Assembly (NCBI GenBank): GCA_043427975.1
Contig: JBHWTK010000026.1
Span: 915 to 64,914 of the forward strand
Origin: Chloroflexia bacterium
Lineage (GTDB): Bacteria; Chloroflexota; Chloroflexia; Thermomicrobiales; UBA6265
Reading direction: 5' to 3'
DNA length: 64,000 bases
The translations under genes and the position numbers were made by a program. Positions 30,790 to 56,650 of the stretch are shown one piece after another (position 1 is the first letter of the stretch; every line of letters begins with the position of its first letter). Below the pieces are notes generated by a model, which did not search any database, was not told where the DNA came from, and saw nothing but the letters and a program-made list of their open reading frames with translations.

Positions 30790-30820
30790 CGCCGGGCCAG
30801 CTGCCCGGCGTTTGCTGTTT
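30790..30820 (+). terminator. Terminator/attenuator between rpmH and rnpA
   Basis: CGCCGGGC-CAGCT-GCCCGGCG followed by TTTGCTGTTT. Confidence 0.6.
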
Positions 30821-31489: not shown

Positions 31490-31611
31490 GGTTCCTGTTC
31501 CGCAAATCATCCCCAACTGTCGCGGCCACCACTCGTTGGCCAAACGCAGGCGAGCGACATCGCTGCGCGAATCGTCCGTAAGGGTTGCAGTAGTACCGGC
31601 GCACCAGCGCC

Positions 31612-32715
31612 ATGTTTTCGCCGCACTGCGGCAGGAGGGCACGTTACGTGCTGGATATCACCTCGGGCGTGAACACGATTGTTCCCGGAATTATCATCTG
31701 GGATCAGTACGTCGATTTCCTCAAATGGTTCCTGAACCTGCTGGCCGATACCTTCCGCAATGGTGGTATCGCGATCATCGTTTTCACCATCATCATCAAG
31801 ACCCTCATGCTGCCGCTCACCATCAAGTCCATTCGCTCGTCCAAGGCGATGCAGGAGCTGGCGCCCAAGATCAAGGAACTGCAGAAAAAGCATGGCAAGG
31901 ATCGCCAGGCGGCCTCGGCGGCGCAGATGCAGCTTTACCAGCAGTACGGCGTCAACCCGATGGCCGGCTGTTTGCCGATGCTGATCCAGCTGCCGATCTT
32001 CTTTGGCGTGTACCGGGCCATCCTGCCGCTCAGCGAGAGCGGTGAAGGACACTGGGCCGATGGTTTCCTCTGGCTCTCCGACCTTGGCCAGCCAGACAAG
32101 TTCTTCATCATGCCGGTACTGGCCGGTCTCTTCCAGTTCGTGCAGGCGCGCATGATGCGGCCGGCGAACCAGAAGGTGACTGATCCGCAGCAGAAGATGA
32201 TGAACACCATGATGAACTTCATGCCGCTCACCGTCATCCTCTTCGGCGCCAACTTCGCCTCGGGCGCGGTGCTGTACTGGGTGGCGCAGGCGATCTACTC
32301 GGTGGTGCAGCAGTGGCTCATCACCGGCTGGGGCGCCATGGCCGAGTGGTTCCCGTGGCTGCCGGAAATGCCCGAGCATCGTCGGCTGGGCTACGTCGCC
32401 CCCAAGACCGCCGAGGAACTGGCCGTACAGAGTGGCCAGCCGGTAAAGAAGGGCCGCTTTGCCGAGTTCATGGAGAAGCAGGCCGAGCTTGCCCGCGAAA
32501 AGCAGGAGCAGGCCCAGCGCCAGCGTGAGGAAGCTGCCGCTGCCATGAAATCCACCAGCCCCCAGGCCGCAGCGAAACCCACCAGGCGTAGCGATTACCA
32601 GAGCCGTGTGGATGCCGCATCCCGCTATCGGAAGGACGCAACCGACGCCGTTGTGGTGCAGTCCGGGCCTGCCGGGCAGGGTACGCCCCGCCGCAAGCGG
32701 AAGAAAAAGGCGTAA
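31612..32715 (+). CDS. yidC: Membrane protein insertase YidC (short, monoderm type)
   Basis: GIAIIVFTIIIKTLMLPLTIKSIRSSKAMQELAPKIKELQKK...GVNPMAGCLPMLIQLPIFFGVY core, with a Lys/Arg-rich C-terminal tail. Confidence 0.92.
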   Translation: MFSPHCGRRARYVLDITSGVNTIVPGIIIWDQYVDFLKWFLNLLADTFRNGGIAIIVFTIIIKTLMLPLTIKSIRSSKAMQELAPKIKELQKKHGKDRQAASAAQMQLYQQYGVNPMAGCLPMLIQLPIFFGVYRAILPLSESGEGHWADGFLWLSDLGQPDKFFIMPVLAGLFQFVQARMMRPANQKVTDPQQKMMNTMMNFMPLTVILFGANFASGAVLYWVAQAIYSVVQQWLITGWGAMAEWFPWLPEMPEHRRLGYVAPKTAEELAVQSGQPVKKGRFAEFMEKQAELAREKQEQAQRQREEAAAAMKSTSPQAAAKPTRRSDYQSRVDAASRYRKDATDAVVVQSGPAGQGTPRRKRKKKA

Positions 32716-32753
32716 ACTATCCGCATCTATACAACCGTTAAGGTGGGGTAAAC

Positions 32754-33593
32754 ATGAGCAAACGAACCAGCGTTGAGATACAGGCTGTCTCGGTTGAGGA
32801 TGCTGTACGCCTCGCACTGGAACAACTGGAACTCACCGAAGCCGATGTGGATATCGAAATCCTCTCCGAGGAAGGCCCCGGTGAGGATGCCGAGGCCCTA
32901 GTGCGTGTGACCGCCAAGGGCATGGCCAGCCAGCCAATTCCATCCCAGAAACCCGCCGATGCCGGAGACCGGGGCAGCCGGAACCGGCGCCGGGGCCGGG
33001 GCGGCCGTGGCGAGAACGGGAATCGCGATTGGCTTGGTGGCCGCACACCGGGGGATCGTCCCAGCCGCCGTGGCAAGCCACCGGTACGCGAGGGCCAGCC
33101 GCGTGATCGCGCGGATGCCGCCCACGAGGCCATTGCCAAGGAAATCCTCACGGACCTGCTCGAGCGCATGGGCGTGGAAGCCGACGTTATGGCGGTTGAT
33201 AACCCCAGCAGCGTGCCGCTGAGCACCGAAGACCCGCCGACCATTTTCCTCGATATCATGGGGCGCGACCTGGGCATGCTCATCGGCCGCCGTGGCGATC
33301 ACCTGGGCCAGCTGCAGTTCCTTATGAATACGCTGGTGAATCGCAAGCTCGAGGAATGGACCCGGGTGATCGTGGATGTGGAGGGCTACCGTGCCCGTCG
33401 CGAGGAATCGCTGGTAGGCCTGGCCGAGCGGGTTGCCCGCCAGGTGGAGCGCAGCGGTCGTCCCATTGTGCTGGAGCCGATGCCGGCCAACGAACGCCGC
33501 ATTATCCACCTCACCCTCAAGCAGTACCCCGGTGTCGCTACCCACAGTGAAGGTGAAGGCAATACCCGCCGGATTACGGTGGAGCCGGTATGA
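32754..33593 (+). CDS. jag: Jag/KhpB RNA-binding protein (Jag_N, KH, R3H)
   Basis: Jag_N N-terminus (VEDAVRLALEQLELTEADVDIEIL), Arg/Gly-rich linker, KH (GMLIGRRGDHLGQLQFL) and R3H (MPANERRIIHLTLK). Conserved position after yidC. Confidence 0.9.
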   Translation: MSKRTSVEIQAVSVEDAVRLALEQLELTEADVDIEILSEEGPGEDAEALVRVTAKGMASQPIPSQKPADAGDRGSRNRRRGRGGRGENGNRDWLGGRTPGDRPSRRGKPPVREGQPRDRADAAHEAIAKEILTDLLERMGVEADVMAVDNPSSVPLSTEDPPTIFLDIMGRDLGMLIGRRGDHLGQLQFLMNTLVNRKLEEWTRVIVDVEGYRARREESLVGLAERVARQVERSGRPIVLEPMPANERRIIHLTLKQYPGVATHSEGEGNTRRITVEPV

Positions 33594-34594
33594 CGGATGC
33601 AGGCAAACCGGGCCGCAAGCACGGCACGCGCGCGCCATTCCGTGGCCAGCAACTCCGATCTCCATTGCAGGGCATGCGCACGCCCGATTACCTGATTGTC
33701 GGCCATATTACTGCCGATTTGCTGGACGATGGCAGCGTGACCTTGGGCGGTACCGCGCTTTATAGCGGGCTGGCCGCAGCACATCTTGGCGCGAATGTCG
33801 CCATCCTCACACGCGGTCGTTTTGGCGAGAAGATCGCCGGAATGGATGTGCCAGGACTTGGCGAATACGCCGACCGCCTGCAGGTGATCGTGCAGGATGC
33901 CGATGTGCCGACGACGTTCACCAATCATTACCTTGGCACCAGCCGCACCCAGCAGATCAAACACTGGGCGGGTCCGATCGACCTGCGTGGCCTGCCGCCG
34001 CACTGGGGCAACGCCAAGATCGTGCACCTCGGCCCGGTGGCCGATGAGCTGGATCCGCGCCGGATTTCCGGCTTTACCACCGGGTTCCTTGGCGTTACGC
34101 CGCAAGGCTGGATGCGCGAATGGCCAAAGGATCGCGGTGGCCGCGTGAATCTTGTGCCGCTCCGCCTGCCGGTGGACCTGGTGAACCGGATCGATTCTGC
34201 GATTGTTTCCGATGAAGAGATCTTCAATGCCCGCGAGTTTATCGAGCGGGTGGGCGAGCGGCGCATGAGCGTGGTGACGCGCGGCCCCGAGGGCGCGAGT
34301 ATCTATCACAGCCTCCCGCGTGATGTGCAGGTGCAGCCGGGCCGGAAGGCCTTCCGTACAGTGGAAATTCCCGGTGTGCCTGTCAAGGTGAAGAGCCTCA
34401 CTGGCGCGGGCGATGTGTTTGCTGCTGCCTTCTTCATGAAGGCCTCCGAGCGCAACAGCAGCGCGCTGGAGGCTGGCCGCTATGCCAACGCCGTGGCCGC
34501 GCTCAGCCTGCGTGAGTTGGGCGCCGGTGTAGTGCCCGACAAACGCGAGGTTGATGAACTGCTGGCCCAGCTGAGGGCCGCAGACCAGCGCTAA
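33590..34594 (+). CDS. PfkB-family carbohydrate/nucleoside kinase
   Basis: C-terminal GAGDVFAAAF motif and an N-terminal GG dipeptide region. ATGA overlap with jag; the start may instead be M29 (33674). Confidence 0.83.
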   Translation: MTDAGKPGRKHGTRAPFRGQQLRSPLQGMRTPDYLIVGHITADLLDDGSVTLGGTALYSGLAAAHLGANVAILTRGRFGEKIAGMDVPGLGEYADRLQVIVQDADVPTTFTNHYLGTSRTQQIKHWAGPIDLRGLPPHWGNAKIVHLGPVADELDPRRISGFTTGFLGVTPQGWMREWPKDRGGRVNLVPLRLPVDLVNRIDSAIVSDEEIFNAREFIERVGERRMSVVTRGPEGASIYHSLPRDVQVQPGRKAFRTVEIPGVPVKVKSLTGAGDVFAAAFFMKASERNSSALEAGRYANAVAALSLRELGAGVVPDKREVDELLAQLRAADQR

Positions 34595-35001
34595 CCTGGC
34601 AGGATCGCCGTCACCCGTATTTCTACCTTCATCGCTGGCTCTCCCAACGCTTCTACCCCCAGCAGGGTCCAGATGGGGGCGTGATGGGGCATATAGTGCC
34701 GGAACATGGCGGTCATGGTTGCGTTGACTTCCGCCTGATGGCCCTCAAGGCCCACGTGCCACGAGTTCACCTCAATCACGTGGTTCCAGTTGGCCCCGGC
34801 GGTCGCGAGGGTACGTCCCACGTTGGCGAATGCCAGCCGGATTTGCTCGTCCACCGTTTCCGGGAATTCCATTGCGTCATTCCACCCGCCCTGGCCGGAG
34901 ATATCGACACGATTGCCAACCCTGACCGCCTGGGAGTAATGGTGCCGTTCCAGTTGAACGTCGCCGTATCCCGGCGTCACGAAATACTCTGGCTCGCTCA
35001 T
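34591..35001 (-). CDS. RidA/YjgF family protein
   Basis: ATG 35001 (MSEPEYFVTPGY...) gives 136 aa. SQAVRVGNRVDISGQGGW and a C-terminal EIRVTA pattern. Confidence 0.85.
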   Translation of the reverse strand: MSEPEYFVTPGYGDVQLERHHYSQAVRVGNRVDISGQGGWNDAMEFPETVDEQIRLAFANVGRTLATAGANWNHVIEVNSWHVGLEGHQAEVNATMTAMFRHYMPHHAPIWTLLGVEALGEPAMKVEIRVTAILPG

Positions 35002-35082
35002 ATGTCCTCCTGTTTTCGACTTTCCGACAGGGACATTGTATCGAGCGGGCACAATGCCAGGCCCCTCCATCGAAAAGCGGGT

Positions 35083-35118
35083 ATGGAAAACGGCTGGCGC
35101 GTGCCAGCCGTTTTCCAT
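35083..35118. promoter_or_regulatory. Perfect 16-bp inverted repeat in a divergent promoter region
   Basis: ATGGAAAACGGCTGGC-GCGT-GCCAGCCGTTTTCCAT, between the ridA start (35001) and the STAND-LuxR gene. No flanking T-tract typical of a terminator. Confidence 0.4.
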
Positions 35119-35300
35119 CTCTCCTGCTCGAGGCGTCCGTTGTGTCTGGGGGCCACCGGGATAACGTCCTCTGGCATCAAGCAATATTGGGTTGGCCATT
35201 CGTTGCCATGGCCGCAGGCATCGGTGCCAGCACACCGGTGCCCGTCTGTTTGATACACGCGAGGTCTATCAACCTCTTTCAAACTATCCACCAGGCGGGT

Positions 35301-37598
35301 ATGGTTGCCTATGGCCCCATGGGATCAATTAGCGGTCCGGAATCGGGTACAGTGGCCCTATGCCTGTATGTCGTGGAGTGCTCACTGGTGAACAATCCGT
35401 CCCGATATGCCCCATATCACCAGCCACTTGTTGGCCGCACGATCGAGCGGGATACCCTGCTTGCCTGGTTGCGGGAAGAAGGTCCTGTAGTGGCCAGCAT
35501 TGTTGGCCCCGGCGGTGTCGGTAAAACGCACCTGGCACATGTGGTGGCGCGCCACCTCGCCACAGAACTCGATGCCGACCTGACGGTGCTGCGGCTGGAT
35601 AACCAGACCCCGGAATCATTGCCGGGATACCTCGCCATGCGGCTGGGTGCTCCGCTGGCCAGCGACGAACCGGATGATATCCCTCAGGAGTTGGTGGAAC
35701 GGCGGCTGGTGCTGCTGGTGGATAACTGTGAAACCGTGCTGCCGGATATCTCGCTGACCGTCTCGCGCCTTGCCATGCTCCCTGGTGTGCGCATCATCGC
35801 CACCAGCCAGGTACCCCTGAACACCTCTACCGAGCGCGTGTTGTGGCTGCAACCACTCGGGGTGGAGTCAGATCTCGAAAGCGACGCCGTGCGCCTGTTT
35901 CTCCATCATGCCCGTATCGCCCGGCCCGATTTTGCGATTGATGAAGAGAACGCCGGGCTGCTGAACGCGATTCTCCATGAGTTGGATGGCTTGCCGCTGG
36001 CGATTGTGCTGGCCGCAGCGCATGTTCGGCACTTGCCGCTTGACGCCCTGCTGGAACAACTGCGCGAGGATATTACCCTGCTTAATGGCGGCCCGGGCGA
36101 TATCCCGGCCCGGCACCGGTCGTTGCGATCCGCTTTCGCCACCAGCCTCAATGGCCTGTCGCACCACCAACACGATCTGCTGCTGATGCTCTCGTGGTAC
36201 CGGTCGGGGTTTGGCGCAGGCGATGTGCAGGAACTGCTGCCGGATACCAGCCGCGCTGCCGCATGGACGTTGCTGGAGCAGTTGGCGGATCGCAGCCTGA
36301 TCCGCCATGTAGCAGGTAACCGGTTTGGCATGCTGCACATTATCCAGGCGATGGCGCACCAACGCGTCATCACCCGCCCGGAACTGGCGGAACACGCGCG
36401 TTCGGTTCATCGCACCATGCTGGCGCGCGTGGCCGCAGAGGCCAAAACGCACATGCACGGCCCGGCAGAGCTGGCCTGGCGGCGCAGGCTTCACGACCTG
36501 CTGCCCGATGTGATGGCTACCTGGGACGATCCTGATCCCGCCATTGCGTTACGCCTGATAGCGGATATGCAGTGGTTCTGGTACACCGGCGCGATGTATG
36601 CCCCGGTATTGCCACGTATGGAAGAGGTGGTTACGCGTGGACAGGGACACGACGCTGCGGCCGGAGCGCACGTCACGCTTGGCTGGATGTGGCACCGGCT
36701 GGGTGAAATAGATACCGCGCAACGGCACTTTGAAGAGGCCATACAGCTTCGTTCGCCCGACGATCCGGTAAGGCAACTCGCAACTGTCGGCCTGGCATAT
36801 TGCCTTACATTCGCCGGCGAGAACATCGAGCGTGGCATCGGGATGTTCGACGACGTCATCGCGGCGGCGTCCCGGCAGGATGGCGTGAGCCATGAACTGG
36901 TAGCGGCGTGGTTCGGCAAGGGCGTGATCCTGGTCTTCCACGGAGATATGGAACTTGCCCAGCCCTGTTTCCTCCGGGCGCTGGAACTTGCTGGCCAGGT
37001 CGACGATTTCCATGCCCTGGGCATGTGCCTGATGCACCTCGCCATGATCAATCTTGCGGAAGGTGATGGTGAATCGGCCCTGTGGAAGCTGCAGGAAGCG
37101 ATCCCACAAATCCTTTCCGGCGGCGACCTCGCCACAGTCGCGCTGGCGCTGGATATCCTGGCCTCGACGCTGGCGGCAATACACCAGCCCGAGCGCGCCG
37201 CGCTGGCACTGGCGCACGGTGAGCGGTTGCGCAATCGCCTGGGCGTGGTGCGCTCGCCGGTAGAGCGGCAGGCGATCGATGAGTTGCGCGCCACCCTGCC
37301 GCCCTTGCCGCAGCTTGCCGCCAATACCGCCACCGGGCAGATTTTGGAGTTGCTGGATACGCGTTCAGGAAAAGAGGCTGAGGCCCCGGCAGCAGCCATG
37401 CTCTCGTCCCGCGAGATGGATGTGCTGCAACTCACGGCCCAGGGATACCGGGGTGCGGAAATCGCCGAACGGCTGTTCATTAGCCCCAATACGGTGAAGC
37501 GGCACATGGCCAATATCCGCAGCAAGCTGGGGGTGAAATCGCAGGCAGCTGCCATCGCCACCATCCGGGAGATGTCTGGCAGTGAAATCCGCAGGTAA
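35301..37598 (+). CDS. STAND-type (AAA/NB-ARC + TPR-like) LuxR-family transcriptional regulator
   Basis: Walker A GPGGVGKTHLA, long helical-repeat middle, C-terminal LuxR HTH LSSREMDVLQLTAQGYRGAEIAERLFISPNTVKRHMANIRSKLG. The maximal ORF starts at 35142; the start is uncertain. Confidence 0.85.
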   Translation: MVAYGPMGSISGPESGTVALCLYVVECSLVNNPSRYAPYHQPLVGRTIERDTLLAWLREEGPVVASIVGPGGVGKTHLAHVVARHLATELDADLTVLRLDNQTPESLPGYLAMRLGAPLASDEPDDIPQELVERRLVLLVDNCETVLPDISLTVSRLAMLPGVRIIATSQVPLNTSTERVLWLQPLGVESDLESDAVRLFLHHARIARPDFAIDEENAGLLNAILHELDGLPLAIVLAAAHVRHLPLDALLEQLREDITLLNGGPGDIPARHRSLRSAFATSLNGLSHHQHDLLLMLSWYRSGFGAGDVQELLPDTSRAAAWTLLEQLADRSLIRHVAGNRFGMLHIIQAMAHQRVITRPELAEHARSVHRTMLARVAAEAKTHMHGPAELAWRRRLHDLLPDVMATWDDPDPAIALRLIADMQWFWYTGAMYAPVLPRMEEVVTRGQGHDAAAGAHVTLGWMWHRLGEIDTAQRHFEEAIQLRSPDDPVRQLATVGLAYCLTFAGENIERGIGMFDDVIAAASRQDGVSHELVAAWFGKGVILVFHGDMELAQPCFLRALELAGQVDDFHALGMCLMHLAMINLAEGDGESALWKLQEAIPQILSGGDLATVALALDILASTLAAIHQPERAALALAHGERLRNRLGVVRSPVERQAIDELRATLPPLPQLAANTATGQILELLDTRSGKEAEAPAAAMLSSREMDVLQLTAQGYRGAEIAERLFISPNTVKRHMANIRSKLGVKSQAAAIATIREMSGSEIRR

Positions 37599-38505
37599 TA
37601 CCCCGTTTGGGGCCGACGAAACGATCCGCGAGCTTATTGCCTGGGGCCGAGACCAGCCCGATATCCGGGCCATGCTGCTCACCAGCACCCGCGCCACCGG
37701 TGCGCCTACGGATACATGGTCCGATTACGACGTGATCCTCATCTGCACCGATGTCACGGTGCGATACGAGGATCGAACGTGGCTGGGCGCCTTTGGCGAG
37801 GTTGTCATCGACTGGTGGGACCCGCTGCAGCCCGATGCTGATACCGGCCTGCCTTCCACCGGCAACGTCGTGTATTACACCGGCACCCGCAAGATCGATT
37901 TCACCCTCTGGCCCACCGGCGTCGCCCCGGTACTGACGGCGGGTCTTACCAATGAACTCGATGCCGGCTATGCCGTACTGCTGGATAAAGACGACCTCAC
38001 CGTCGGCTGGTCCGCCCCAACTGGACAGGCGTATGTTATCGCGTTGCCCGATTGCAAGCGCTACCGCGAGGCCGTGAACGATTTCTTTATCGGCGTGCCG
38101 TATGTGGCAACGGCGATGATCCGCGGCGAGATCCTGCCCGGCAAATGGGTGCTGGATTATGACATGCGCTACGAGTACCTGCTGCCCCTGCTGAAGTGGT
38201 ATGCCGTGGTGTTGCACGGCGATGTGCGCATCGGCGAAACGGGCAAGGGGTTGTCGGCGCTGTTGCCGCGCGCAGTGTGGGATCGGCTGGAGCCTACCTA
38301 CGCTGGCATGGATGTAGCGGCCAACATCGCGGCTATGGACGCGATGATCGTGCTCTTTCGCGGCATCGCGCAGGTGGTGGGTCTGGGAATCGGCTGTGGG
38401 TATCCGCACGACCTCCACGACCGTGTGGTGGGGCACACCAATACACTGCTGGCAGGTGCGGGGTTGCCTCAGCTGTCCAGGAGTGCCAGTTCCTCATCTA
38501 CATAG
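37582..38505 (+). CDS. Aminoglycoside 6-adenylyltransferase (ANT(6)/AadK) family protein
   Basis: IRAMLLTSTRA...SDYDVILI...KIDFTLWP...VLLDKD...FFIGVPYVATAMIRGEILPGKW parallels the AadK layout. 17-nt overlap with the LuxR gene. Confidence 0.78.
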   Translation: MKSAGNTPFGADETIRELIAWGRDQPDIRAMLLTSTRATGAPTDTWSDYDVILICTDVTVRYEDRTWLGAFGEVVIDWWDPLQPDADTGLPSTGNVVYYTGTRKIDFTLWPTGVAPVLTAGLTNELDAGYAVLLDKDDLTVGWSAPTGQAYVIALPDCKRYREAVNDFFIGVPYVATAMIRGEILPGKWVLDYDMRYEYLLPLLKWYAVVLHGDVRIGETGKGLSALLPRAVWDRLEPTYAGMDVAANIAAMDAMIVLFRGIAQVVGLGIGCGYPHDLHDRVVGHTNTLLAGAGLPQLSRSASSSST

Positions 38506-39291: not shown

Positions 39292-40302
39292 ATGATTAAG
39301 TACCTGGGATCCAAGCGCAAGCTGGTGCCGCATATCCTGGAGCGGATTCAGGGGTTGCCGGTGCAGCGTGTATGCGACCTGTTCACCGGTACCACCCGGG
39401 TGGCCCAGGCTTGCAAGCGGGCCGGAATGTATGTGGTGGCAAACGACCTCGCCAGCTACAGCCATGTGTTTGCGACCGCCTATATCGCGGCGGATGCCAC
39501 CCGGCTGGACATGGACCGGCTGCAGGGCTGGATTAATCACCTGAACGCGCTGCCGCCCGCGCCGGGGTACATCACCCGCACGTTTTGCGAGGATGCGCGC
39601 TATTTCCAACCAAAGAACGGTGCCCGTATCGATGCCATGCGGGCCGGAATCGATGCGTTGCCAGCCTCGGAGCACGAACGCGCGGTGCTGCTGGCCGCGC
39701 TGCTGCTGGCGGCCGACCGGGTGGATTCCACCACGGGGTTGCAGATGGCCTACCTGAAACAGTGGTCGCCGCGATCCCACAACGATATCGAACTGCGCTT
39801 GCCGCACCTGCTGGACGGTCCCGGAGAGGCGCACCAGCAGGATGCCCTGATGTTCGCCCGGGCTGGTGGCACGCGGGATGTGGACCTGACCTACATCGAT
39901 CCGCCCTACAACCAGCACAGCTACGCTGGTAACTACCACGTGTGGGAAACCCTGGTGCGCAACGACGCCCCGGAGGCATACGGAGTCGCGCGCAAGCGCC
40001 TGGATGTGCGCGGTCAGCGCAATCCGTGGAACAGCAAACCGCGGTTCCGCGAGACCCTGGGCAATACACTGGCCGCGATTGAGAGCCGCTACATGCTGGT
40101 GAGTTTCAGTAATGAGGGGTTTCTCTCCAGTACCGACCTGGAAGCGCTGTTACAGGAATTCGGCCGCGTCGAGCGCACGGATATCGATTTCCGGCGCTAC
40201 ATCGGCGCCCAGATCGGCGTGCACAATCCCGCCGGGGAGAAGGTTGGAACGGTGTCGCACACGAAGAACGTGGAGCACCTGTTCCTCGTGGACCGGGGGT
40301 AG
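39292..40302 (+). CDS. N6-adenine DNA methyltransferase (D12/Dam-like class)
   Basis: MIKYLGSKRKL N-terminus, SAM motif DLFTGTTRV, catalytic YIDPPYN. No restriction endonuclease recognisable next to it. Confidence 0.87.
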   Translation: MIKYLGSKRKLVPHILERIQGLPVQRVCDLFTGTTRVAQACKRAGMYVVANDLASYSHVFATAYIAADATRLDMDRLQGWINHLNALPPAPGYITRTFCEDARYFQPKNGARIDAMRAGIDALPASEHERAVLLAALLLAADRVDSTTGLQMAYLKQWSPRSHNDIELRLPHLLDGPGEAHQQDALMFARAGGTRDVDLTYIDPPYNQHSYAGNYHVWETLVRNDAPEAYGVARKRLDVRGQRNPWNSKPRFRETLGNTLAAIESRYMLVSFSNEGFLSSTDLEALLQEFGRVERTDIDFRRYIGAQIGVHNPAGEKVGTVSHTKNVEHLFLVDRG

Positions 40303-40317
40303 GTTTCACAGGGGAAT

Positions 40318-40435
40318 GTAGGCCCGTCCTTCGCACCCTGAGCACAGCGAAGGGAAGAATGGGGCGGGCCCGGCAGGCATGGCCACCCGGTTCGATGGAC
40401 CCGCCCCATGGCCGTTCCGGCCAGGTCGGGTCTAC
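40318..40435. repeat. REPIN-like doublet, copy 1
   Basis: Forward REP GTAGGCCCGTCCTTCGCACCCTGAGCACAGCGAAGGGAAGAATGGGGCGGGC, plus inverted REP GGACCCGCCCCATGGCCGTTCCGGCCAGGTCGGGTCTAC. Confidence 0.85.
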
Positions 40436-40459
40436 ATTTGGGATTATTCCACGCGGGAA

Positions 40460-40582
40460 GTAGGCCCGTCCTTCGCACCCTGAGCGCAGCGAAGGGGAGA
40501 ATGGGGCGGGCCCGGAAGGCCGGGCAATCCCTGTGCCAGCCATGGATCCACCCAATGGCCGTTTCGGCCCGGACGGATCTAC
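40460..40582. repeat. REPIN-like doublet, copy 2
   Basis: The forward REP is nearly identical to copy 1. The inverted partner is degenerate (GGATCCACCCAATGGCCGTTTCGGCCCGGACGGATCTAC). Confidence 0.8.
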
Positions 40583-40607
40583 AGTTGGGCGTTATCCCAC
40601 ACGGCAA

Positions 40608-40659
40608 GGAGACCCGTCCTTCGCACCTTGAGCGCAGCGAAGGGGAGAATGGGGCGGGC
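40608..40659. repeat. Solo REP, degenerate head (GGAG instead of GTAG)
   Basis: GGAGACCCGTCCTTCGCACCTTGAGCGCAGCGAAGGGGAGAATGGGGCGGGC, ending 10 nt before the transposase start region. Confidence 0.75.
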
Positions 40660-40668
40660 ACAGGGAGA

Positions 40669-41208
40669 ATGTTGATGCCATTTCCGGATCGCACGTCCAT
40701 ACGCCCCGGCACCACCCGGCGGGTGCGTCTGAAGGATTTCGATTACTCTACCCCGGGCTACTACTTCATCACTATTTGCACGCATAACCGGCATCACTAC
40801 TTCGGATCAATAGCAGGCGAAGTCCTCAGCCTCACTCCCGCCGGAAACATGGTTGCAGATGCAATTCGCGAATCCGAATCGGTGTTTCCATCAACGGCTG
40901 TCGACTCATTTATCGTTATGCCCAACCACATTCACGTATTGTTTGGCCAATCGGTGCGTTTAGAGGATGAGCCGGGAACCACTGACCTGATTGACGTGGT
41001 GCAATGGCTTAAGAGCACAACCCATCAGCGGTTCCGCAAGGGTGTCTTGAAACACCGATGGACTCCATACGACCGGTTGGTTTGGCAAGAGGGGTATCAC
41101 GATCACATCGTTCGGAATGAACGTGAGTTGGATGCGCTTCGTGCGTATGTGATGAAAAACGTTGCCACATGGGAGAAGGACCGGTTCTACGACGGGATTG
41201 TGGGTTGA
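40669..41208 (+). CDS. REP-associated tyrosine transposase (RAYT; IS200/IS605-like Y1 HUH transposase)
   Basis: HUH motif MPNHIHVLF. Catalytic-Tyr region WQEGYHDHIVRNERELDALRAYV. ATG 40669 or 40675 after GGGAGA. The upstream part of track ORF 40408 is just REP sequence. Confidence 0.87.
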   Translation: MLMPFPDRTSIRPGTTRRVRLKDFDYSTPGYYFITICTHNRHHYFGSIAGEVLSLTPAGNMVADAIRESESVFPSTAVDSFIVMPNHIHVLFGQSVRLEDEPGTTDLIDVVQWLKSTTHQRFRKGVLKHRWTPYDRLVWQEGYHDHIVRNERELDALRAYVMKNVATWEKDRFYDGIVG

Positions 41209-41231
41209 TATAGAGAAATCGCCTGGAACAC

Positions 41232-41334
41232 GTAGGCCCATCCTTCGTATCCTCAGCGTAGTGAAGAGGAGAATGGGGCAGCCGTGGCCAGCCATGGACC
41301 CGCCCCATGGCCGTTCCGGCCAGGACGGGTCTAC
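41232..41334. repeat. REPIN-like doublet, copy 4 (downstream of RAYT)
   Basis: GTAGGCCCATCCTTCGTATCCTCAGCGTAGTGAAGAGGAGAATGGGGCAGCC ... GGACCCGCCCCATGGCCGTTCCGGCCAGGACGGGTCTAC. Confidence 0.8.
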
Positions 41335-41371
41335 AAACGCGGCGTTGGGCCGAGATCCGGGCGGGGCGGGC

Positions 41372-41848
41372 CTATGCCTCCCCGCCATCCCATTGCATCT
41401 GGCGCTCTTCGACCTCTTCGTCGGTGAGGTCCTCATGCGCAAGGACCAGCATGGCGGTGGCCATTTCCTTCTTGCGGAAGAACATGCGGATTTCGCTCCA
41501 CAGGTTCGGGTTGGTGCGGCCCAGTTCCAGCAGGGCATCGCTGAACACCACATCGCCACGGGCACGCTGTTCGGTCATGAACTCGGTGCTTAGCAGCTCC
41601 GCCATGTAGATCGGGCCGATATCGGCAAACTTCTCGCGGTAATACGCGATCAGCTTGCTAATGTGCCCGATATCCACCGGCTGGCCGTCATCCGTACCAA
41701 ACGCGCTGCGCCAATCCACACAGGCCAGCAGCTCATCGATCAACCGAATCTTCTCGCCGTGGCGTACCCGTTCCAGCAAGGCATCGACCTTTGCGCGGTC
41801 GTAGGGCAAATCGTGGGGTGTCTCGGGCAGGCGGGTTCCGTCGGTCAT
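41372..41848 (-). CDS. Hypothetical acidic protein (158 aa)
   Basis: ATG 41848 (MTDGTRLPETPHDLPYDRAKVDALL...). The upstream part of the track ORF has no coding look. No family recognised. Confidence 0.55.
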   Translation of the reverse strand: MTDGTRLPETPHDLPYDRAKVDALLERVRHGEKIRLIDELLACVDWRSAFGTDDGQPVDIGHISKLIAYYREKFADIGPIYMAELLSTEFMTEQRARGDVVFSDALLELGRTNPNLWSEIRMFFRKKEMATAMLVLAHEDLTDEEVEERQMQWDGGEA

Positions 41849-41990
41849 GCATCTATCCTCGTACATACAGGGGAGTATTCGCCCGCGCGGGTATGCAGGC
41901 AGTACCATTATGAAGCGATTGTACAATCGTCGCTGGTCACCACCTGCCCTGTTCACCATCCACCTGCCAGCGCACCTACGGAGATACCTC

Positions 41991-44471
41991 ATGGCCCAGG
42001 GCCGCATCGGTCGCAGCGTCGGTCGATACCCTTCCACCCAATACCGGCGCAACGCGTTCGCCAGCAGCCGCTACGGCAAGCGTGGACGTGGCCTGCCACC
42101 CCACCTGATGCCGGGCGTGCGCAACCACAAGCGCAAATCCAACCCAGTGATGAACCGCCGCACCTTTGTGATCGGGATGTTCACGCTGGGGATTACGCTG
42201 TTGCTCTCGTTCCTGGCGATCACCGTTACATCGGCGGTGACAGGTGCCTGGGCAATTGTGCGCGAGTACCGCAAGGTGAACGCGAGCCTGCCGGCCGCGG
42301 GGCCACTGTTTGTGAACACCTTCCAGACTACGCGCATCTTTGACCGCAAGGGCAAGCTGCTGCAGGAAATCGAGAACCCGGACTACGGCTGGCGCACGTT
42401 CATTTCCATGGACCAGATGTCGCAGGATTTCATCAACGCCACCGTTGCCGCCGAGGATGCCACGTTCTGGACTAACCAGGGCATTGAGCCGGTGGCATTC
42501 CTGCGTGCCGGTATGATCATGGTCACCGGGGCGGGGAGTTCCGGTGCATCCACCATCACCCAGCAGTTGGTGCGCGCCACGTATCCCGACGAGATCAGCG
42601 CGCAGGATATCAGCATCAACCGCAAGTTCCGCGAGGCGCTGGCGGCCGTGGCGATGGCGCAGGAGTATTCCAAGGAAGATATCTTCACGATGTACGTGAA
42701 CCAAATCTTCTATGGCAATCGCAGCTACGGCATTGAAGCGGCAGCGAACAGCTATTTCAACAAGCACGCCAGCGAGCTTACCCTGGCCGAGTCCGCCTTC
42801 CTGGCCGGTATCCCGCAGCAGCCCAGCAATTTCACTCCCACCACAGAAGAGGGCTACAACGCCGCCAAGAACCGGCAGGGGTACGTGCTGGATCAAATGC
42901 GCAAGCTCGGCTATATCACCCGCGAGCAGCGCAAGGCCGCCTGGGAAGAGCCGCTGAACGTAATTCGGGAACCGCGCGTGGGCACCATGAAGGCGGCACC
43001 GCACTTCACCCTGTACATGCACGATTACATCCGCGAGAAGTTCGGTGACGAGGCCATTTACGGCGGCCTGAACTTCTACACCAGTATCGACCTGGACTTG
43101 CAGGCCGAGGCGGAGGCGATTATTCGTCAGGGTGTGGAGCGCGAGCGGCAATACAACCGGAACAACGCCGCAACGGTGATCATGTGTCCCTGGAACGGGG
43201 AGATCCTGGCGATGGTCGGTTCGGCCGATTTCAACGACCAGTCGATTGCTGGCCAGGTGAACTTCACCACCTCGGGCATCCAGCCGGGATCTAGCATGAA
43301 GCCGATCGCCTACGCAGCCGCCTTCGAGCAGGGGTGGCACCCGGGTTACGTGGTGATGGATGTTCCCACCACCTGGGAAGTGCCGGGCCAGGAAGATTAC
43401 AAGCCAAACAACTACAGCAAGCTGTTCTATGGAGCGGTCAATATCCGTCGGGCACTGGCAAGCTCACTAAATATCAGCGCCGTAAAGGCGACGGAATATG
43501 CTGGCGTGGCCGGCGTGATGGATGTCGCCAAGCGCATGGGTATGATCACCAGCCTGGGCGAGGATCCGAGCTGGTACGGTGTGGCGTTAGGCCTGGGGTC
43601 CGGTGAGGTGAAGCTGCTGGAACACACCAATGTGTTTGCCACATTCGCCAACAATGGCCGCTATGTGCCGGTTACCCCCATCCAGCGTGTGGAGGATACG
43701 CAGGGCAACATCCTGTACGAAACCACGCAGGAAAGTACCGACCAGGTGGCCAGCCAGGCGATTGCCCCCGGTATTGCCTACCAGATCACCAGCATCCTGA
43801 GCGATAACGAAGCCCGCGCGCCGATGTTTGGCGACGATAACGCCCTCAGCAACGCCCAGCGCGGCGTCGGCCGGCCGACGGCGGCGAAATCGGGTACCAC
43901 CGAGAACTGGCGCGACCTGTGGACCATGGGCTATACCAGCGCCCTCGCGGTCGGCGTATGGGTCGGCCGATCCGGTGACGGTGGCGGCGAATTGCTGGAA
44001 CGCGACGGTACGCCGGCGGCGGGTCCGATTTTCGGTGACCTGATTCGCATGGTGCACGGAACCCCGGAATTCGCCGAACTGTTGCACGGCCCGGATGGCC
44101 AGCCGCTGCCGGAGGAGTTCCCGGTACCCGACGATGTCTCCCGCCAGCGGGTCGACCGGGTGACGGGGCATCGGCCAGGGTCGGGTAACACCGTTGAGGA
44201 GTGGATTGTGGACGGCCTGGAGCCGCAGCTGGCCTACAACGAGACCAGTGAGTGGGAGCGTGAGCAGCTCGAAAACGCACTGCGCCAGGTGGATCGGGGC
44301 GCGCAATGGAGCGGCGATGCGGAACGGAGCATTCTGCGGTATGCCAACCAGGTTGGCGCGCGCAACGCCCCGATTGATGATGATGAGGATTCCGATTCCG
44401 GTTCGAACGACAGCGGCGGCGGCAACGACAGTGAAGAAGTGCCCATCGAGCCAATCGAACCGAACGATTGA
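41991..44471 (+). CDS. Class A penicillin-binding protein (transglycosylase/transpeptidase, PBP1A-like)
   Basis: GT51 motifs EDATFWTNQGIEP and RKFREA. Transpeptidase SSMK (SxxK), SLN (SxN) and KSGTT (KTG). ATG 41991 has GGAGA 7 nt upstream. Confidence 0.92.
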   Translation: MAQGRIGRSVGRYPSTQYRRNAFASSRYGKRGRGLPPHLMPGVRNHKRKSNPVMNRRTFVIGMFTLGITLLLSFLAITVTSAVTGAWAIVREYRKVNASLPAAGPLFVNTFQTTRIFDRKGKLLQEIENPDYGWRTFISMDQMSQDFINATVAAEDATFWTNQGIEPVAFLRAGMIMVTGAGSSGASTITQQLVRATYPDEISAQDISINRKFREALAAVAMAQEYSKEDIFTMYVNQIFYGNRSYGIEAAANSYFNKHASELTLAESAFLAGIPQQPSNFTPTTEEGYNAAKNRQGYVLDQMRKLGYITREQRKAAWEEPLNVIREPRVGTMKAAPHFTLYMHDYIREKFGDEAIYGGLNFYTSIDLDLQAEAEAIIRQGVERERQYNRNNAATVIMCPWNGEILAMVGSADFNDQSIAGQVNFTTSGIQPGSSMKPIAYAAAFEQGWHPGYVVMDVPTTWEVPGQEDYKPNNYSKLFYGAVNIRRALASSLNISAVKATEYAGVAGVMDVAKRMGMITSLGEDPSWYGVALGLGSGEVKLLEHTNVFATFANNGRYVPVTPIQRVEDTQGNILYETTQESTDQVASQAIAPGIAYQITSILSDNEARAPMFGDDNALSNAQRGVGRPTAAKSGTTENWRDLWTMGYTSALAVGVWVGRSGDGGGELLERDGTPAAGPIFGDLIRMVHGTPEFAELLHGPDGQPLPEEFPVPDDVSRQRVDRVTGHRPGSGNTVEEWIVDGLEPQLAYNETSEWEREQLENALRQVDRGAQWSGDAERSILRYANQVGARNAPIDDDEDSDSGSNDSGGGNDSEEVPIEPIEPND

Positions 44472-44497
44472 TTTGCACATCGCAGAAAACGGCGGAG

Positions 44498-44528
44498 GCC
44501 CGGACTTTATGTCCGGGCATTTGTTTGT
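44498..44528 (+). terminator. Terminator of the PBP gene
   Basis: GCCCGGAC-TTTAT-GTCCGGGC followed by ATTTGTTTGT. Confidence 0.7.
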
Positions 44529-44610
44529 GCCGATGACCAGACGATCCCGTCGTCCCGGACTGTGTGGGCGGGCGTCGGGGCCGATGGCAGGACGGGAAGT
44601 TCCCCACCAT

Positions 44611-44653
44611 GCCCGCCCATGCAGGATCGTGCCGATCCTTGGGACGGGCCTAC
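44611..44653. repeat. Solo REP (reverse orientation) of the GTAGGCCCGTCC family
   Basis: The reverse complement reads GTAGGCCCGTCCCAAGGATCGGCACGATCCTGCATGGGCGGGC. Lies 14 nt beyond the terminase-like gene stop. Confidence 0.7.
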
Positions 44654-44666
44654 GCATGTATGGCAA

Positions 44667-46109
44667 TCATGTCCCCACCGCAATCCGGGGCCGGGGATCG
44701 AGATCGTCCAGCGCGGCAACGAGGGCAGCACTGAGCACCAGGTCATCATGACCAACATGGGCAGGCACGCCCCATTGCATGGTGTTACCTGGTCCGCGGC
44801 GCACCTCGTACTCCGTGGCAGCCAGCTGGGCATAGAACTCGTTCGTCAGCGCGTCCCCATCATCCGCATAGTCACGGAACCGCCCGGTTTCGATGAGCCC
44901 GATGAAATCCCATCCAAGGCGGCTCTTGCTGGCAGCCGAAAACACAAACGGCACCACGCGAATGCCGGTGCGGCGCAAGCTGGCCTCAAGGAAACTGGCC
45001 AGGCCCGCCCCAATGCCGGTGGAATCCACCACGATCCAGTTCGACCGCCATACATGCCGGGCCAGTTCCACGATATGCGCATGCAGGTCGGCGTGGCGGA
45101 TGCCGGTCCATGCCCGGCGATCGATAACGCGGTACACGGGCCGGGTGTCGGCGCGGCTGCGGGTATCCACCTCCACCACCGTGAGCGCCGTGCTATCGCG
45201 GCGACTGGTGCTGAAACTGTCAATACCGCCGCCGTGTTCTTCCTCGCCGGCAACATCCAGCAGCAGGGCGTAGCGCTTGCCGGGTTCGGCGCGGTACCGG
45301 CGTGGATGGTCGCCGCGCATCATCGCCAGGCGATGCGGCGGGAACAGGCTTTGCTGGCCATCCAGTTCTTCCAGGAAATACTCGGTGCGCACAAATGGAT
45401 GCTGCTCACCCAATTGGGCGATACGGCTCTGCACCCGCATGCCATAGGCGGGAACATCCTGCGCCACACGTTGCCATGGCACCACGAACACCCGTTGTAA
45501 TCCGTCGGCATGCTGCTTTTCGCGCAGGTAGCGCATCTGGCGGGCGAGCAATGTTTCGCGCGTCCAGACCGTGCCGAGGAAGAGAGTGGTTGCGTTGGTG
45601 GATGCCGCCATTGGATCGAACACTGCATCCCACACTGCCGGGCGGATATCCTGCGATTCGTTGGCGATAAGGCCGAGATCGGCAGTGAGGCCGCGCGCAT
45701 TGGCAGTACGGGCTGCCGAAACGAACACCGCCTGCGCGTTCCCGACACTGATGCTGCGGTCGCGCACGCGTACCAGTGGCGCGGTGATGGGGTTGGCCAG
45801 CAGCCGGTCGCACAGGCGGTCACGGCTAATCAGCGCCTGCGGCCGGAGGGTAGGGGCGGCCACCACAATGGTGCCGCCACGGGTTGCGTTACGCAGCAGC
45901 ACCCAGGCAATGATCTGGGCCAGTGTTTCATCCTTGCCGGCCTGGCGGCTGAACACCAGCGCAAATTGTTCGCCACTGCGGGCCAGCAGGTGCCGCGCCA
46001 GGGGACGTGCCGCCTCCAGCTGGTACCCGCGCATGGCGAACTGCGGCAGCCCGACCCGGCTAAAGCTGCCGATATCGCGCAGGGCAGCATGGAGCGGGCT
46101 TACACCCAT
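44667..46109 (-). CDS. Phage terminase large subunit-like protein (ATPase + RNaseH-like nuclease)
   Basis: Walker A-like FSRQAGKDE, Walker B-like LGLIANES, nuclease-domain Asp motifs LLLDVAG, WIVVDSTGIG and HDDLVLS. 480 aa with no frameshifts. Confidence 0.8.
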   Translation of the reverse strand: MGVSPLHAALRDIGSFSRVGLPQFAMRGYQLEAARPLARHLLARSGEQFALVFSRQAGKDETLAQIIAWVLLRNATRGGTIVVAAPTLRPQALISRDRLCDRLLANPITAPLVRVRDRSISVGNAQAVFVSAARTANARGLTADLGLIANESQDIRPAVWDAVFDPMAASTNATTLFLGTVWTRETLLARQMRYLREKQHADGLQRVFVVPWQRVAQDVPAYGMRVQSRIAQLGEQHPFVRTEYFLEELDGQQSLFPPHRLAMMRGDHPRRYRAEPGKRYALLLDVAGEEEHGGGIDSFSTSRRDSTALTVVEVDTRSRADTRPVYRVIDRRAWTGIRHADLHAHIVELARHVWRSNWIVVDSTGIGAGLASFLEASLRRTGIRVVPFVFSAASKSRLGWDFIGLIETGRFRDYADDGDALTNEFYAQLAATEYEVRRGPGNTMQWGVPAHVGHDDLVLSAALVAALDDLDPRPRIAVGT

Positions 46110-56268: not shown

Positions 56269-56430
56269 GTAGACCCGTCCTGACCGCGAAGCGGTCATGG
56301 GGCGGGTTTCCCTCCGCAAGACGCGTATTTGGCCACCATCCCGCCTGGTGCCCGCCCGATTCGCCGGGGCTCGCTCCGCTACTCGTGCTTCGCACTCGGC
56401 CGCCTTCGGCGCGGCGAAGGACGGGCCTAC
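56269..56430. repeat. REPIN-like doublet (GTAGACCCGTCC head ... GGACGGGCCTAC tail)
   Basis: Begins with GTAGACCCGTCCTGACCGCGAAGCGGTCATGGGGCGGGT, a nested 8+7-bp hairpin. Ends with the inverted GTAGGCCCGTCCTTCGC-type REP. Confidence 0.8.
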
Positions 56431-56556: not shown

Positions 56557-56650
56557 GTAGACCCGTCCTGACCGCGAAGCGGTCATGGGGCGGGTTTCCC
56601 TCAACCAGGCACGCATCCCGCCATCACGCCGGATGGTGCCCGCCCGATTC
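56557..56650. repeat. 94-bp direct repeat of 56269-56362
   Basis: The first 46 nt (56557-56602) are identical to 56269-56314, and the last 16 nt GGTGCCCGCCCGATTC are identical. The middle 32 nt have diverged. Confidence 0.85.

Follow-up and report, generated by a model that had tools for sequence, protein, structure and literature searches.

A probable REPtron in a Thermomicrobiales-like member of the Chloroflexota: one RAYT gene among GTAG-footed REP hairpins

Described REP-RAYT systems and their parallels

In the REPtron of Escherichia coli K-12, a single gene for the Y1 HUH nuclease TnpA-REP (YafM, PDB 4ER8; Quentin subclass 2.2, Bertels Group 2) lies between inverted REPs of two subtypes, Y and Z2. 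The nuclease carries an asparagine at position +4 from its catalytic tyrosine and a W-Q...(E/D)-H...R motif that contacts GTAG. Its REPs combine a 5' GTAG with a hairpin that is imperfect close to its foot, where it has a mispair or bulge. REPs and doublets without a gene are scattered over the intergenic DNA (PMC3333891, PMC3479197, PMC6006769). The same arrangement was found in the 64-kb stretch of DNA analysed here (the window), where the two subtypes of REP are called G and A. The locus matches the definition of a REPtron, and its REPs match those with a GT[AG]G foot in TnpA-REP subclasses 2.2, 2.4, 2.5, 2.7 and 2.8 (PMC6006769). We put the probability that it is a REPtron, with one chromosomal RAYT (class-2 Y1 HUH nuclease) gene amid cognate REP copies, at about 0.88. 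Most likely, this is a single-copy domesticated IS200-like nuclease gene whose product has copied the surrounding REPs and REPINs around the genome. RAYT loci are a well-known type of system, and the present one is a clean but ordinary example from a Thermomicrobiales-like member of the Chloroflexota.

There are also clear differences from the E. coli system. The two proteins share only ~18% identity in a structural alignment, the protein described here has D in place of E100 and Y---NV in place of Y---NP, and it has a conserved N-terminal extension (RPGTTRR.RLK.(F/Y)DYS.PGYYF), whereas TnpA-REP has a C-terminal tail. The host belongs to the Chloroflexota and not to the Proteobacteria, and only ~20 nt of each REP are conserved, the inner hairpins varying between copies. 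Several features resemble RAYT Group 4 (Bertels 2017) and subclasses 2.4 and 2.7 (Quentin 2018), which are scattered over many phyla, Group 4 being common in Cyanobacteria, Chlorobia and the Chloroflexi class Caldilineae (PMC5581495). Their REPs are long, canonical GT[AG]G elements with three consecutive G-C pairs at the bottom of the stem (PMC6006769), here R-CCC...GGG-Y, and in their proteins, as in the present one, a conserved motif precedes the core. The low abundance of flanking 16-mers in Group 4 is what modular REPs like these would give. D at the E100 position, here D145, has been reported for subclasses 2.5 and 2.7 (PMC6006769). Insertions between HUH and Y, a trait of subclass 2.4, occur in more distant homologues of the present protein, which itself has a HUH-Y spacing of 71 aa, in contrast to the subclass 2.4 median of 88. 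A further difference is that the RAYT gene carries no internal REP insertion. By these compatible features, the RAYT may belong near subclasses 2.4 and 2.7 (Bertels Group 4).

The REPIN-RAYT system of Pseudomonas fluorescens (Group 3, subclass 2.5), in which REPINs are the likely replicating unit (PMC3116915), likewise has a single-copy RAYT between REP doublets. However, in Pseudomonas the REPs are short and very uniform, and identical 16-mers run into the hundreds. Here the copy number appears low, and the two halves of a doublet differ in their inner hairpins, so that they cannot pair into a single long and perfect hairpin. The IS200/IS605 transposases of IS608 and ISDra2 have the same fold and apply the same HUH and tyrosine chemistry to ssDNA hairpins, guided by a tetranucleotide (PMC6006769). 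Unlike the system described here, they are obligate dimers with a domain-swapped tyrosine helix and a Y---Q motif, and they belong to multi-copy elements with defined, directly oriented LE and RE ends and often a tnpB partner.

The probable RAYT gene and its product

As listed in Table 1, the window contains one RAYT-type gene, an intact open reading frame. The start is probably ATG 40675, since this codon has a Shine-Dalgarno spacing of 7 nt and agrees with the N-termini of homologues (MPFP... or MLFP...). The 217-aa NCBI call (P0001), whose start falls within a REP doublet, is probably too long. The neighbours are a D12 methyltransferase gene and an ORF without a family match, in agreement with the earlier statement that a tnpB partner is missing, and no second RAYT gene copy, tnpB or IS ends were found in the window. 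A scan of the locus for promoters and terminators found no sigma-70-like promoter 5' of the gene and was uninformative.

A preceding interpretation of the DNA letters (the sequence-only reading) had recognized the HUH motif NHIHVL, which is indeed present as H87-I-H89 within PNHIHVL and aligns to the HMH of 4ER8. The same reading, whose interpretation is otherwise supported, had placed the catalytic tyrosine in GYHDHIVRNE, and this is wrong. In E. coli TnpA-REP the residue aligned to Y143 of that stretch is F98, and several homologues also have F there, whereas the catalytic residue, Y160 (LRAYVMKN), aligns to E. coli Y115 and ISDra2 Y132. The GYHDHIVRNE stretch is instead part of the WQ..DH..R motif that binds GTAG in E. 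coli, with W139, Q140, D145, H146 and R149 corresponding to E. coli W94, Q95, E100, H101 and R104 in a profile alignment to 4ER8. Y160-V-M-K-N164 aligns to E. coli Y115...N119 and carries the class-2 signature; the residue after N164 is V in the clade of this RAYT and P in more distant homologues, the usual form being Y---NP. H87, H89, Y160 and N164 are invariant in 75 homologues, and over the same set the catalytic and GTAG-contact residues, all intact here, are invariant or nearly so.

The identification as a RAYT is supported by profile searches. Pfam Y1_Tnp ('Transposase IS200 like') gave 34.6 bits against a cutoff of 23. The best NCBIfam match was REP_Tyr_transpos (NF047646; 60.7 bits, E=1.4e-16), which is below the curated equivalog cutoff of 80, so of the profile check proposed earlier the Pfam part passed and the RAYT-specific part gave a best match under threshold. 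The transpos_IS200 model (NF033573) reached 18 bits against a cutoff of 55. A single-sequence phmmer search of the PDB gave no matches, and a family profile was needed to retrieve 4ER8, the best match among solved structures by sequence (E=6e-8, versus 1.4e-3 for ISDra2 TnpA). The AF2 model had a pLDDT of 87.8, and Foldseek returned 30 chains at E<=0.001, all of them Y1 transposases. Among these, 4ER8 showed the lowest rmsd (2.5 Å over 144 columns) and the highest query TM-score (0.57), whereas the E-value ranking placed ISDra2 and IS608 TnpA chains level with or above it. The sequence-only reading had named grouping with ordinary IS200/IS605 TnpA as an outcome that would overturn it. The gene does not group there: it has the class-2 signature, with N at the Q position, it is present once in the window and has no IS ends, and it differs from subclass 1.1 in its transpos_IS200 score and its neighbours as well.

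Table 1. Features of the locus and REP copies elsewhere in the window
Feature	Position	Strand	Details
G-type REP (GTAG-GCCCGTCC ... GGGCGGGC), left half of doublet 1 (REPIN 40318-40435)	40318..40369	+	ssDNA fold -13.7 kcal/mol, z -2.6
A-type REP (GTAG-ACCCGACC-TGGCCGGAACGGCCA-TG-GGGCGGGT), right inverted half of doublet 1	40399..40435	-	ssDNA fold -15.7 kcal/mol, z -5.0
G-type REP, left half of doublet 2 (40460-40582)	40460..40511	+	repeat search, fold
Degenerate A-type REP (GTAG-ATCCGTCC ... GGGTGGAT), right half of doublet 2	40546..40582	-	fold -9.9 kcal/mol, z -2.6
Solo gene-proximal REP, GGAG for GTAG, A...C first pair	40608..40659	+	ends 3 nt 5' of Shine-Dalgarno
GGGAG Shine-Dalgarno	40663..40667	+	7 nt 5' of ATG 40675, 1 nt 5' of ATG 40669; read directly
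RAYT / TnpA-REP-type Y1 HUH gene	40669..41208	+	179 aa from 40669; probably 177 aa from 40675
Degenerate G-type REP (GTAG-GCCCATCC ... GGGGCAGC), left half of doublet 3 (41232-41334)	41232..41283	+	repeat search, fold
A-type REP, right inverted half of doublet 3	41298..41334	-	fold -15.4 kcal/mol, z -5.05
Possible REP-head remnant (ATAG-GCCCGCCC)	41364..41375	-	overlaps stop codon of minus-strand ORF 41372-42052; weak
Dispersed G-type REP, different inner hairpin	44611..44653	-	z -4.9; between PBP1A stop (44471) and stop of convergent ORF 44667-46109
Dispersed A-type REP, left half of 162-nt doublet (56269-56430)	56269..56307	+	z -5.0; downstream of ABC-transporter gene (stop 56174)
Dispersed G-type REP, right half of 56269-56430 doublet, 61-nt interior, foot unchanged	56350..56430	-	fold z only -0.5
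Dispersed A-type REP, identical to 56269-56307	56557..56595	+	followed by truncated partner tail (GCCCGCCCGATTC, about 56638-56650)

REP hairpins around the gene and elsewhere

Around the gene lie three REP doublets and a solo REP, which amounts to 2.5 doublets upstream and 1 downstream. The nearest upstream REP and the inverted REP that ends doublet 3 point towards the gene from either side (REP -> gene <- REP), and two more doublets lie further upstream. All composite repeats that the sequence-only reading had marked out were recovered, including their pairing of a forward with an inverted REP between GTAG and CTAC, except that the second half of doublet 2 and the first half of doublet 3 are degenerate. 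Its further observations, a shared outer stem around different inner hairpins and a GTAG mutated to GGAG in the copy beside the ribosome-binding site, were found as well. With the solo copy, 3/7 flanking REPs are degenerate (40546, 40608 and 41232).

The REPs have a common frame, GTAG-RCCCGTCC-[variable inner hairpin]-TN bulge-GGGCGGGY, whose foot contains a conserved T·G mispair. In an alignment of 20 copies the foot is conserved, its first pair is A-T (15) or G-C (5), covarying with none broken, and the T·G mispair is present in 17/20; GTAG directly precedes the 8-bp foot in 10/11 REP copies. Inverted A-type REPs fold as ssDNA with z-scores of about -5, and the longer flanking G-type REPs fold more weakly (z -1.6 to -2.6). 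None of the hairpins has a T-tract, and therefore they are not intrinsic terminators. The matches are not due to chance, since GTAGRCCCRTCC with at most 1 mismatch gave 12 matches in the window against 1.43 expected, a number reached by 0/100 shuffles, and for the REP cores of 42 nt and 30 nt 0 matches are expected. One direct repeat (D3) and two inverted repeats (I2 and I3) were judged to be chance matches. Wide variation of the inner hairpin, with only a foot of ~20 nt conserved, is a mildly unusual form of REP modularity.

The repeat could have been unique to this locus, which would have spoken against the sequence-only reading, but 4-5 further REP copies occur at two other intergenic sites of the window (44.6 kb and 56.3-56.6 kb; Table 1), the 64 kb over which copies outside the REPtron were counted. 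Over 46 nt there is no difference between the two A-type copies at 56269 and 56557, and the tails of their partners match too, which suggests a recent duplication or conversion. In the REP at 56350-56430, 14 of the 61 nt of the interior form a TTCGCCG/CGGCGAA inner stem, and L007 and L079 have copies with 91-93% similarity to this interior. The same REP frame recurs in two related MAGs, the Sphaerobacteraceae MAG CAZGML01 and Chloroflexi UBA6265, where it was found on several contigs. Among the matches listed for a scan of genome contigs with GTAGRCCCGTCCN{10,40}GGGCGGG, most were single chance matches in high-GC genomes, and only these two MAGs had multiple genuine REPs. Two metagenome contig scans with tighter REP frames gave 0 matches, and no Rfam family or tRNA was found in the window. 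A generic scan for GTAG at an 8-bp foot, which was noisy and used only to spot other hairpin families, placed 13.8% of GTAG sites at such a foot, against a baseline of 6.6% for tetranucleotide sites overall. The window has several more families of hairpins that are GTAG-footed or GC-rich, without a link to any Y1 gene there.

Orthologous loci and competing explanations

Orthologues that are 50-63% identical were found on five other Thermomicrobiales/Chloroflexota contigs with the same layout. In three of these (L016, L118 and L127) the gene follows a REP and is itself followed by an inverted REP (GTAG-REP -> gene <- REP-CTAC), and in the other two (L123 and L124) the contig end cuts one side, so that full REPs are visible on one flank only. 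The feet vary by lineage (RCCCGTCC, ACTCGGGC, RCCCGCAC and CGCCNNCC), which fits co-evolution of protein and REP. A distant homologue in Fodinibius (37% identity) had no obvious flanking GTAG REPs, and therefore we do not extend the REP association past the Thermomicrobiales clade. One family member (P0013) was found at one locus, between unchanged neighbours, on 12 contigs that stem from different samples. Relatives differ in the chromosomal position of the RAYT gene, thus over long periods the gene or the REPtron has not been strictly immobile. It is conceivable, though doubtful, that the whole REPtron can invert between its inverted REPs. Beside the same D12 methyltransferase gene in the relative UBA6265, the REPtron faces the other way; a simple in-place inversion was rejected there, since the gene on the far side is not homologous to the neighbour in the window.

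By homology with E. coli TnpA-REP, the RAYT would bind a REP folded into an ssDNA hairpin. The W139-Q140...D145-H146...R149 motif would read the 5' GTAG, and the protein would also read the stem's imperfect foot, which comprises 8 bp including the conserved T·G mispair and then the 2-nt bulge; the E. coli system needs GTAG plus a bulge (PMC3479197, PMC8266576). H87 and H89 would hold the metal, and ssDNA would be cut and rejoined via a 5'-phosphotyrosine on Y160. The expected outcome is that REPs and doublets (REPINs/BIMEs) are duplicated or moved to other intergenic sites while the gene stays single-copy. We infer DNA binding, cleavage and mobilization by the RAYT, and ongoing activity.

The shared fold, the Foldseek ranking, the Pfam family name and a gene neighbourhood that differs between relatives would also suit an ordinary autonomous IS200/IS605-type IS, with tnpA only, which moves as a unit and whose ends are the flanking hairpins. 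This is very improbable. The protein scores poorly with the IS200 model and has Y---N, not Y---Q (PMC6006769), the flanks are asymmetric and inverted rather than direct, gene-less copies of the same hairpins lie at other intergenic sites, and there is no tnpB. In addition, 64 kb contain 1 gene copy, and P0013 stays at its conserved locus. A pairing of the Y1 gene with unrelated palindromes, generic regulatory or terminator elements that happen to be adjacent, can practically be dismissed. GTAG-REPs flank the gene at 5 independent orthologue loci, 3 of them two-sided, with lineage-specific feet, the hairpins lack the T-tract of terminators, and the protein has retained its GTAG-contact motif; the other hairpin families of the window, and the finding of the loose scan that GTAG sits at the foot of an 8-bp stem only ~2x as often as an average tetranucleotide does, are what such an explanation can draw on.

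Somewhat different is the case of a once-active RAYT whose REPs are no longer mobilized and now serve as passive or host-co-opted hairpins, for instance as terminators or mRNA stabilizers. The degenerate REPs, including the GGAG copy beside the gene, the modest REP density in the window, the missing sigma-70-like promoter and the fact that E. coli TnpA-REP is itself auto-inhibited (PMC3479197) are in line with such decay. However, the ORF is full length with catalytic and GTAG-contact residues preserved, the copies at 56269 and 56557 are identical with matching tails, and orthologues have kept lineage-matched REPs; we consider a decayed relic very unlikely.

The REPtron reading extends to another phylum the conserved GTAG guide with its protein contact motif, and a REP foot that appears to change along with the protein by lineage. 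It concerns under-sampled Thermomicrobiales-like Chloroflexota, for which RAYTs and REPs are mentioned only in surveys; the locus raises no new biological question. The putative recognition module of ~20 nt (GTAG, the 8-bp foot with its T·G mispair and the TN bulge) is conserved across REPs, and the interiors measure 15-61 nt, with at least 5 different ones within 64 kb. It is conceivable, though doubtful, that the RAYT services a modular REP super-family in which this module is fixed and the inner hairpin is freely exchangeable cargo. The varied interiors could come from RAYT-mediated strand exchange between REPs or from nested insertions. If there is such a super-family, REPIN censuses based on 16-mers systematically undercount these systems outside the Proteobacteria. 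REP finders that look for abundant 16-mers will overlook families in which the conserved part is divided between a head of 12 nt and a tail of 8 nt. In these MAGs, REPs also account for contig breaks and for the mis-called 217-aa gene start that runs into a REP.

The RAYT protein

The open reading frame is intact, and its true start is probably the ATG at 40675, 7 nt past the Shine-Dalgarno sequence, as judged from homologue N-termini that read MPFP... or MLFP.... The database record of this protein (P0001) is 217 aa long, and its N-terminus (40555-40668, about 114 nt upstream) lies within REP doublet 2 and the solo REP, a start-codon mis-annotation that was probably caused by the repeat. The protein scored 34.6 bits with the Pfam model Y1_Tnp (cutoff 23), and the top model was NCBIfam REP_Tyr_transpos (60.7 bits, E=1.4e-16), a score below the curated cutoff of 80. 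A single-sequence phmmer search of the PDB with the window protein alone gave no match, and a 17-sequence profile placed E. coli TnpA-REP (4ER8) first (E=6e-8), with ISDra2 TnpA at 1.4e-3.

The residues that contact GTAG in TnpA-REP are W94/Q95/E100/H101/R104, the class-2 signature is Y---NP, and N119 stands where IS608 has Q (Quentin et al. 2018, PMC6006769). In the profile alignment, W94, Q95, E100, H101 and R104 correspond to W139, Q140, D145, H146 and R149 of the window protein, and E. coli Y115 and N119 to Y160 and N164; ISDra2 Y132 also aligns to Y160. The sequence-only reading had recognized the HUH motif in NHIHVL, and both of its histidines, H87 and H89, are invariant in 75 homologues, as are Y160 and N164. 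The same reading had placed the catalytic Tyr in GYHDHIVRNE, which did not hold, since Y143 of this stretch aligns to F98 and several homologues have F there. The alignment to E. coli Y115 and ISDra2 Y132 makes Y160, within LRAYVMKN, the predicted catalytic Tyr, and GYHDHIVRNE is the predicted GTAG-recognition stretch. An AlphaFold2 model of the protein (mean pLDDT 87.8, pTM 0.82) matched Y1 transposases in all significant PDB hits, with the best superposition on 4ER8 (rmsd 2.5 Å over 144 columns, query TM-score 0.57) and rmsd values of 5-13 Å for the domain-swapped IS608 and ISDra2 dimer chains. The modelled Tyr helix fits the arrangement in monomeric TnpA-REP (PMC3479197).

REPs in the window and in relatives

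A repeat search returned a four-copy direct family starting at 40313, 40455, 40603 and 41227, and a three-copy family at 40388, 40535 and 41287. The head motif GTAGRCCCRTCC, with at most one mismatch, had 12 matches across the window, where 1.43 were expected; 0 of 100 shuffles reached this number, and seven of the matches flank the RAYT gene. The match at 52397 has coding-looking surroundings without a matching tail, and is probably due to chance. The composite repeat proposed to bracket the gene is indeed found on both sides, every doublet has GTAG at its outer left and CTAC at its outer right end, and the altered copy nearest the gene borders the ribosome binding site, as had been noticed.

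Features of the window and loci of relatives (L numbers, contigs; P numbers, homologous proteins)
Feature	Position	Strand	Description
Second GTAG hairpin family	30208-30232	+	GTAG-GCTCGGGC-TTCAT-GCCCGAGC
Second GTAG hairpin family	30326-30350	-	GTAG-GCCTGGGT-TTCAT-ACCCAGGC
D12-class N6-adenine DNA methyltransferase, orphan-looking	39292-40302	+	directly upstream of REPtron; TAG stop within a GTAG
REP doublet 1	40318-40435		upstream of RAYT gene
REP doublet 2	40460-40582		upstream of RAYT gene; right half degenerate
Solo REP	40608-40659		upstream of RAYT gene; begins GGAG
Shine-Dalgarno GGGAG			3 nt beyond end of solo REP
RAYT gene	40669-41208	+	179 aa
REP doublet 3	41232-41334		downstream of RAYT gene; left half degenerate
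Dispersed REP	44611-44653	-	between PBP1A stop and convergent ORF
Dispersed REPs	56269-56307, 56350-56430	+, -	162-nt doublet after ABC-transporter gene
Dispersed REP	56557-56595	+	partner truncated
Third GTAG hairpin family	57650-57835	-	GTAG-TGGCGGAC-CTAYGT-GTCCGCC
Fourth GTAG hairpin family	61105-61141, 61178-61211	+, -	inverted pair, GTAG-GGGCGGAT...ATCCGCCC
L016 (UBA6265) homologue			about 63% identity; adjoins orthologous D12 methyltransferase, reversed relative to window; REPs: upstream G-type with GTGG, downstream doublet
L016 methyltransferase orthologue	2177-3187		abuts RAYT, REPtron reversed
L118 homologue P0013			56% identity; between arginase gene and gene of unknown function; REPs: GTAGACTCGGGCC...CCCGGGTTC on one flank, inverse on other
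L123 homologue P0012			55% identity; MFS-transporter gene upstream, contig end 115 nt past gene; REPs: GTAGRCCCGCACC...GGTGCGGGT doublets upstream
L124/L125 homologue P0004			63% identity; directly upstream of rpmH-rnpA-yidC, contig start 123 nt before gene; REPs: downstream GTAGGCCCGTCC, GTAGACTCGTCC, upstream one inverted copy with degenerate tag GTAA
L125 methyltransferase orthologue	6026-7039		without RAYT
L127 homologue P0018			50% identity; between Mur-ligase gene and ddl; REPs: on each flank, short hairpins (GTAG-CGCCNNCC) whose stems are compensated

All copies share a frame of GTAG, RCCCGTCC, a variable interior, a 2-nt TN bulge and GGGCGGGY. In an alignment of 20 REPs from the window and related contigs the foot is conserved, its first pair covaries (A-T in 15, G-C in 5, broken in 0), and pair 6 is a T·G mispair kept in 17. 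A-type REPs fold as hairpin-bulge-hairpin (z ~ -5), and G-type REPs have longer interiors and weaker folds (z -0.5 to -2.6), with the exception of 44611-44653 (z -4.9). As anticipated, a common outer stem encloses differing interiors: at least five versions of 15 to 61 nt, strongly unlike one another, occur within the same 64 kb, and in most copies the interior has complementary bases at its two ends (TG.CCG...CGG.CA or TTCG...CGAA). E. coli TnpA-REP requires GTAG before an imperfect, bulged stem (PMC3479197, PMC8266576), and the common frame of the window REPs presents exactly this determinant, in line with the recognition architecture suggested earlier. Their sole mildly unusual aspect is the small conserved part combined with diverse interiors; such little conserved REPs with varied interiors would also account for the low counts of flanking 16-mers that Group 4 RAYTs are reported to have.

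The repeat also occurs beyond the locus, at 44.6 kb and 56.3-56.6 kb and in two related MAGs; among the matches listed, the frame was present on at least four contigs of a Sphaerobacteraceae MAG and at least two of Chloroflexi bacterium UBA6265. One Sphaerobacteraceae contig (L053, CAZGML010000047.1) starts with a tandem REP array (1-860; 10 matches detected, representing nine distinct copies) that is made up of doublets recurring every 75-160 nt or so and probably caused the assembly break. The matches listed by the genome scan were mostly chance ones, and two metagenome scans with tighter versions of the REP frame gave no match.

Thermomicrobiales and related MAGs supplied the nearest homologues of the protein. 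Across the lineages in the table, GTAG and the arrangement of the flanks stay the same: L016, L118 and L127 have REPs on either side of the gene, and L123 and L124 have full doublets on one flank only, the other flank of L124 having a single degenerate copy. The foot sequence varies together with the protein, as has been described for TnpA-REP/REP co-evolution (PMC8266576). Among these relatives the RAYT gene has no conserved chromosomal position, and P0013 is identically placed on 12 contigs from several samples. The 3' flank of the L125 methyltransferase gene contains other repeats and RhuM and HsdM_N-fragment genes, and no RAYT.

ALTERNATIVES

The observation on 40299-41334 holds, and its reading as a RAYT embedded in REPs is supported, with the catalytic Tyr moved to Y160. 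An ordinary IS200/IS605 insertion sequence is disfavoured by the model scores (REP_Tyr_transpos 60.7 bits, IS200 model 18 bits), the Y---N motif, flanks that are asymmetric and inverted, the REP copies that exist without the gene, and the single gene copy in the window; moreover, no tnpB was seen at the locus, as stated before. That the RAYT is a decayed relic is improbable, as every functional residue is intact and two dispersed REP copies are identical over 46 nt. Coincidental adjacency of REPs and gene is excluded for practical purposes by five independent orthologue loci.

As Ton-Hoang et al. 2012 (PMC3333891) use the term, the locus is a REPtron; in the terms of Nunvar 2010 and Bertels and Rainey 2011 (PMC2817692, PMC3116915), it is a RAYT/REPIN system. 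GTAG-tagged REPs of Chloroflexi have been reported before (PMC3733652), and Group 4 RAYTs were reported as common in Caldilineae (PMC5581495). The RAYT is a candidate member of Quentin subclass 2.4 or 2.7, as suggested by the D at the E100 position, a motif conserved at the N-terminus, long canonical REPs whose stem bottom has three G-C pairs, and distant homologues with insertions between HUH and Y.

Other repeats and neighbouring genes

A second GTAG-footed hairpin family forms an inverted pair (30208-30350) just upstream of rpmH, and may be the partner of a different RAYT encoded elsewhere in the genome. In L125 the site upstream of rpmH is held by the RAYT gene itself. The third family consists of three tandem copies in one orientation, about 70 nt apart. 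With four GTAG hairpin families in the window, this genome thus contains several distinct GTAG-REP families within 64 kb. GC-rich perfect palindromes at 56195-56230 and 56455-56490 (CGCCCGGGG-TTAA-CCCCGGGCG and GCGCCCGGGGG-ATGAA-CCCCGGGCGC) have GTAC or GTGC in front, with an A-type REP 50-100 nt downstream of each; they may constitute a further small repeat family or belong to some larger composite unit.

Directly past the PBP1A stop, an intrinsic-terminator-like hairpin (44480-44510; GGCCCGGAC-TTTAT-GTCCGGGC, then a T-rich run) is distinct from the REP and degenerate REP fragments downstream (44540-44653). The 480-aa ORF at 44667-46109 (-) contains a Terminase_6C domain (phage terminase large-subunit RNaseH-like, E=3.5e-5), and a prophage or prophage remnant may begin right after REP 44611-44653. 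The rpmH-rnpA-yidC-jag(KH/R3H)-pfkB cluster at 30384-34539 has 74% nucleotide identity to L124, and its presence raises the possibility that the replication-origin region is close to the window. The following ~4 kb, from pfkB to a TPR gene (about 34540-38470), has no counterpart in L124/L125 and is therefore an indel between the relatives.
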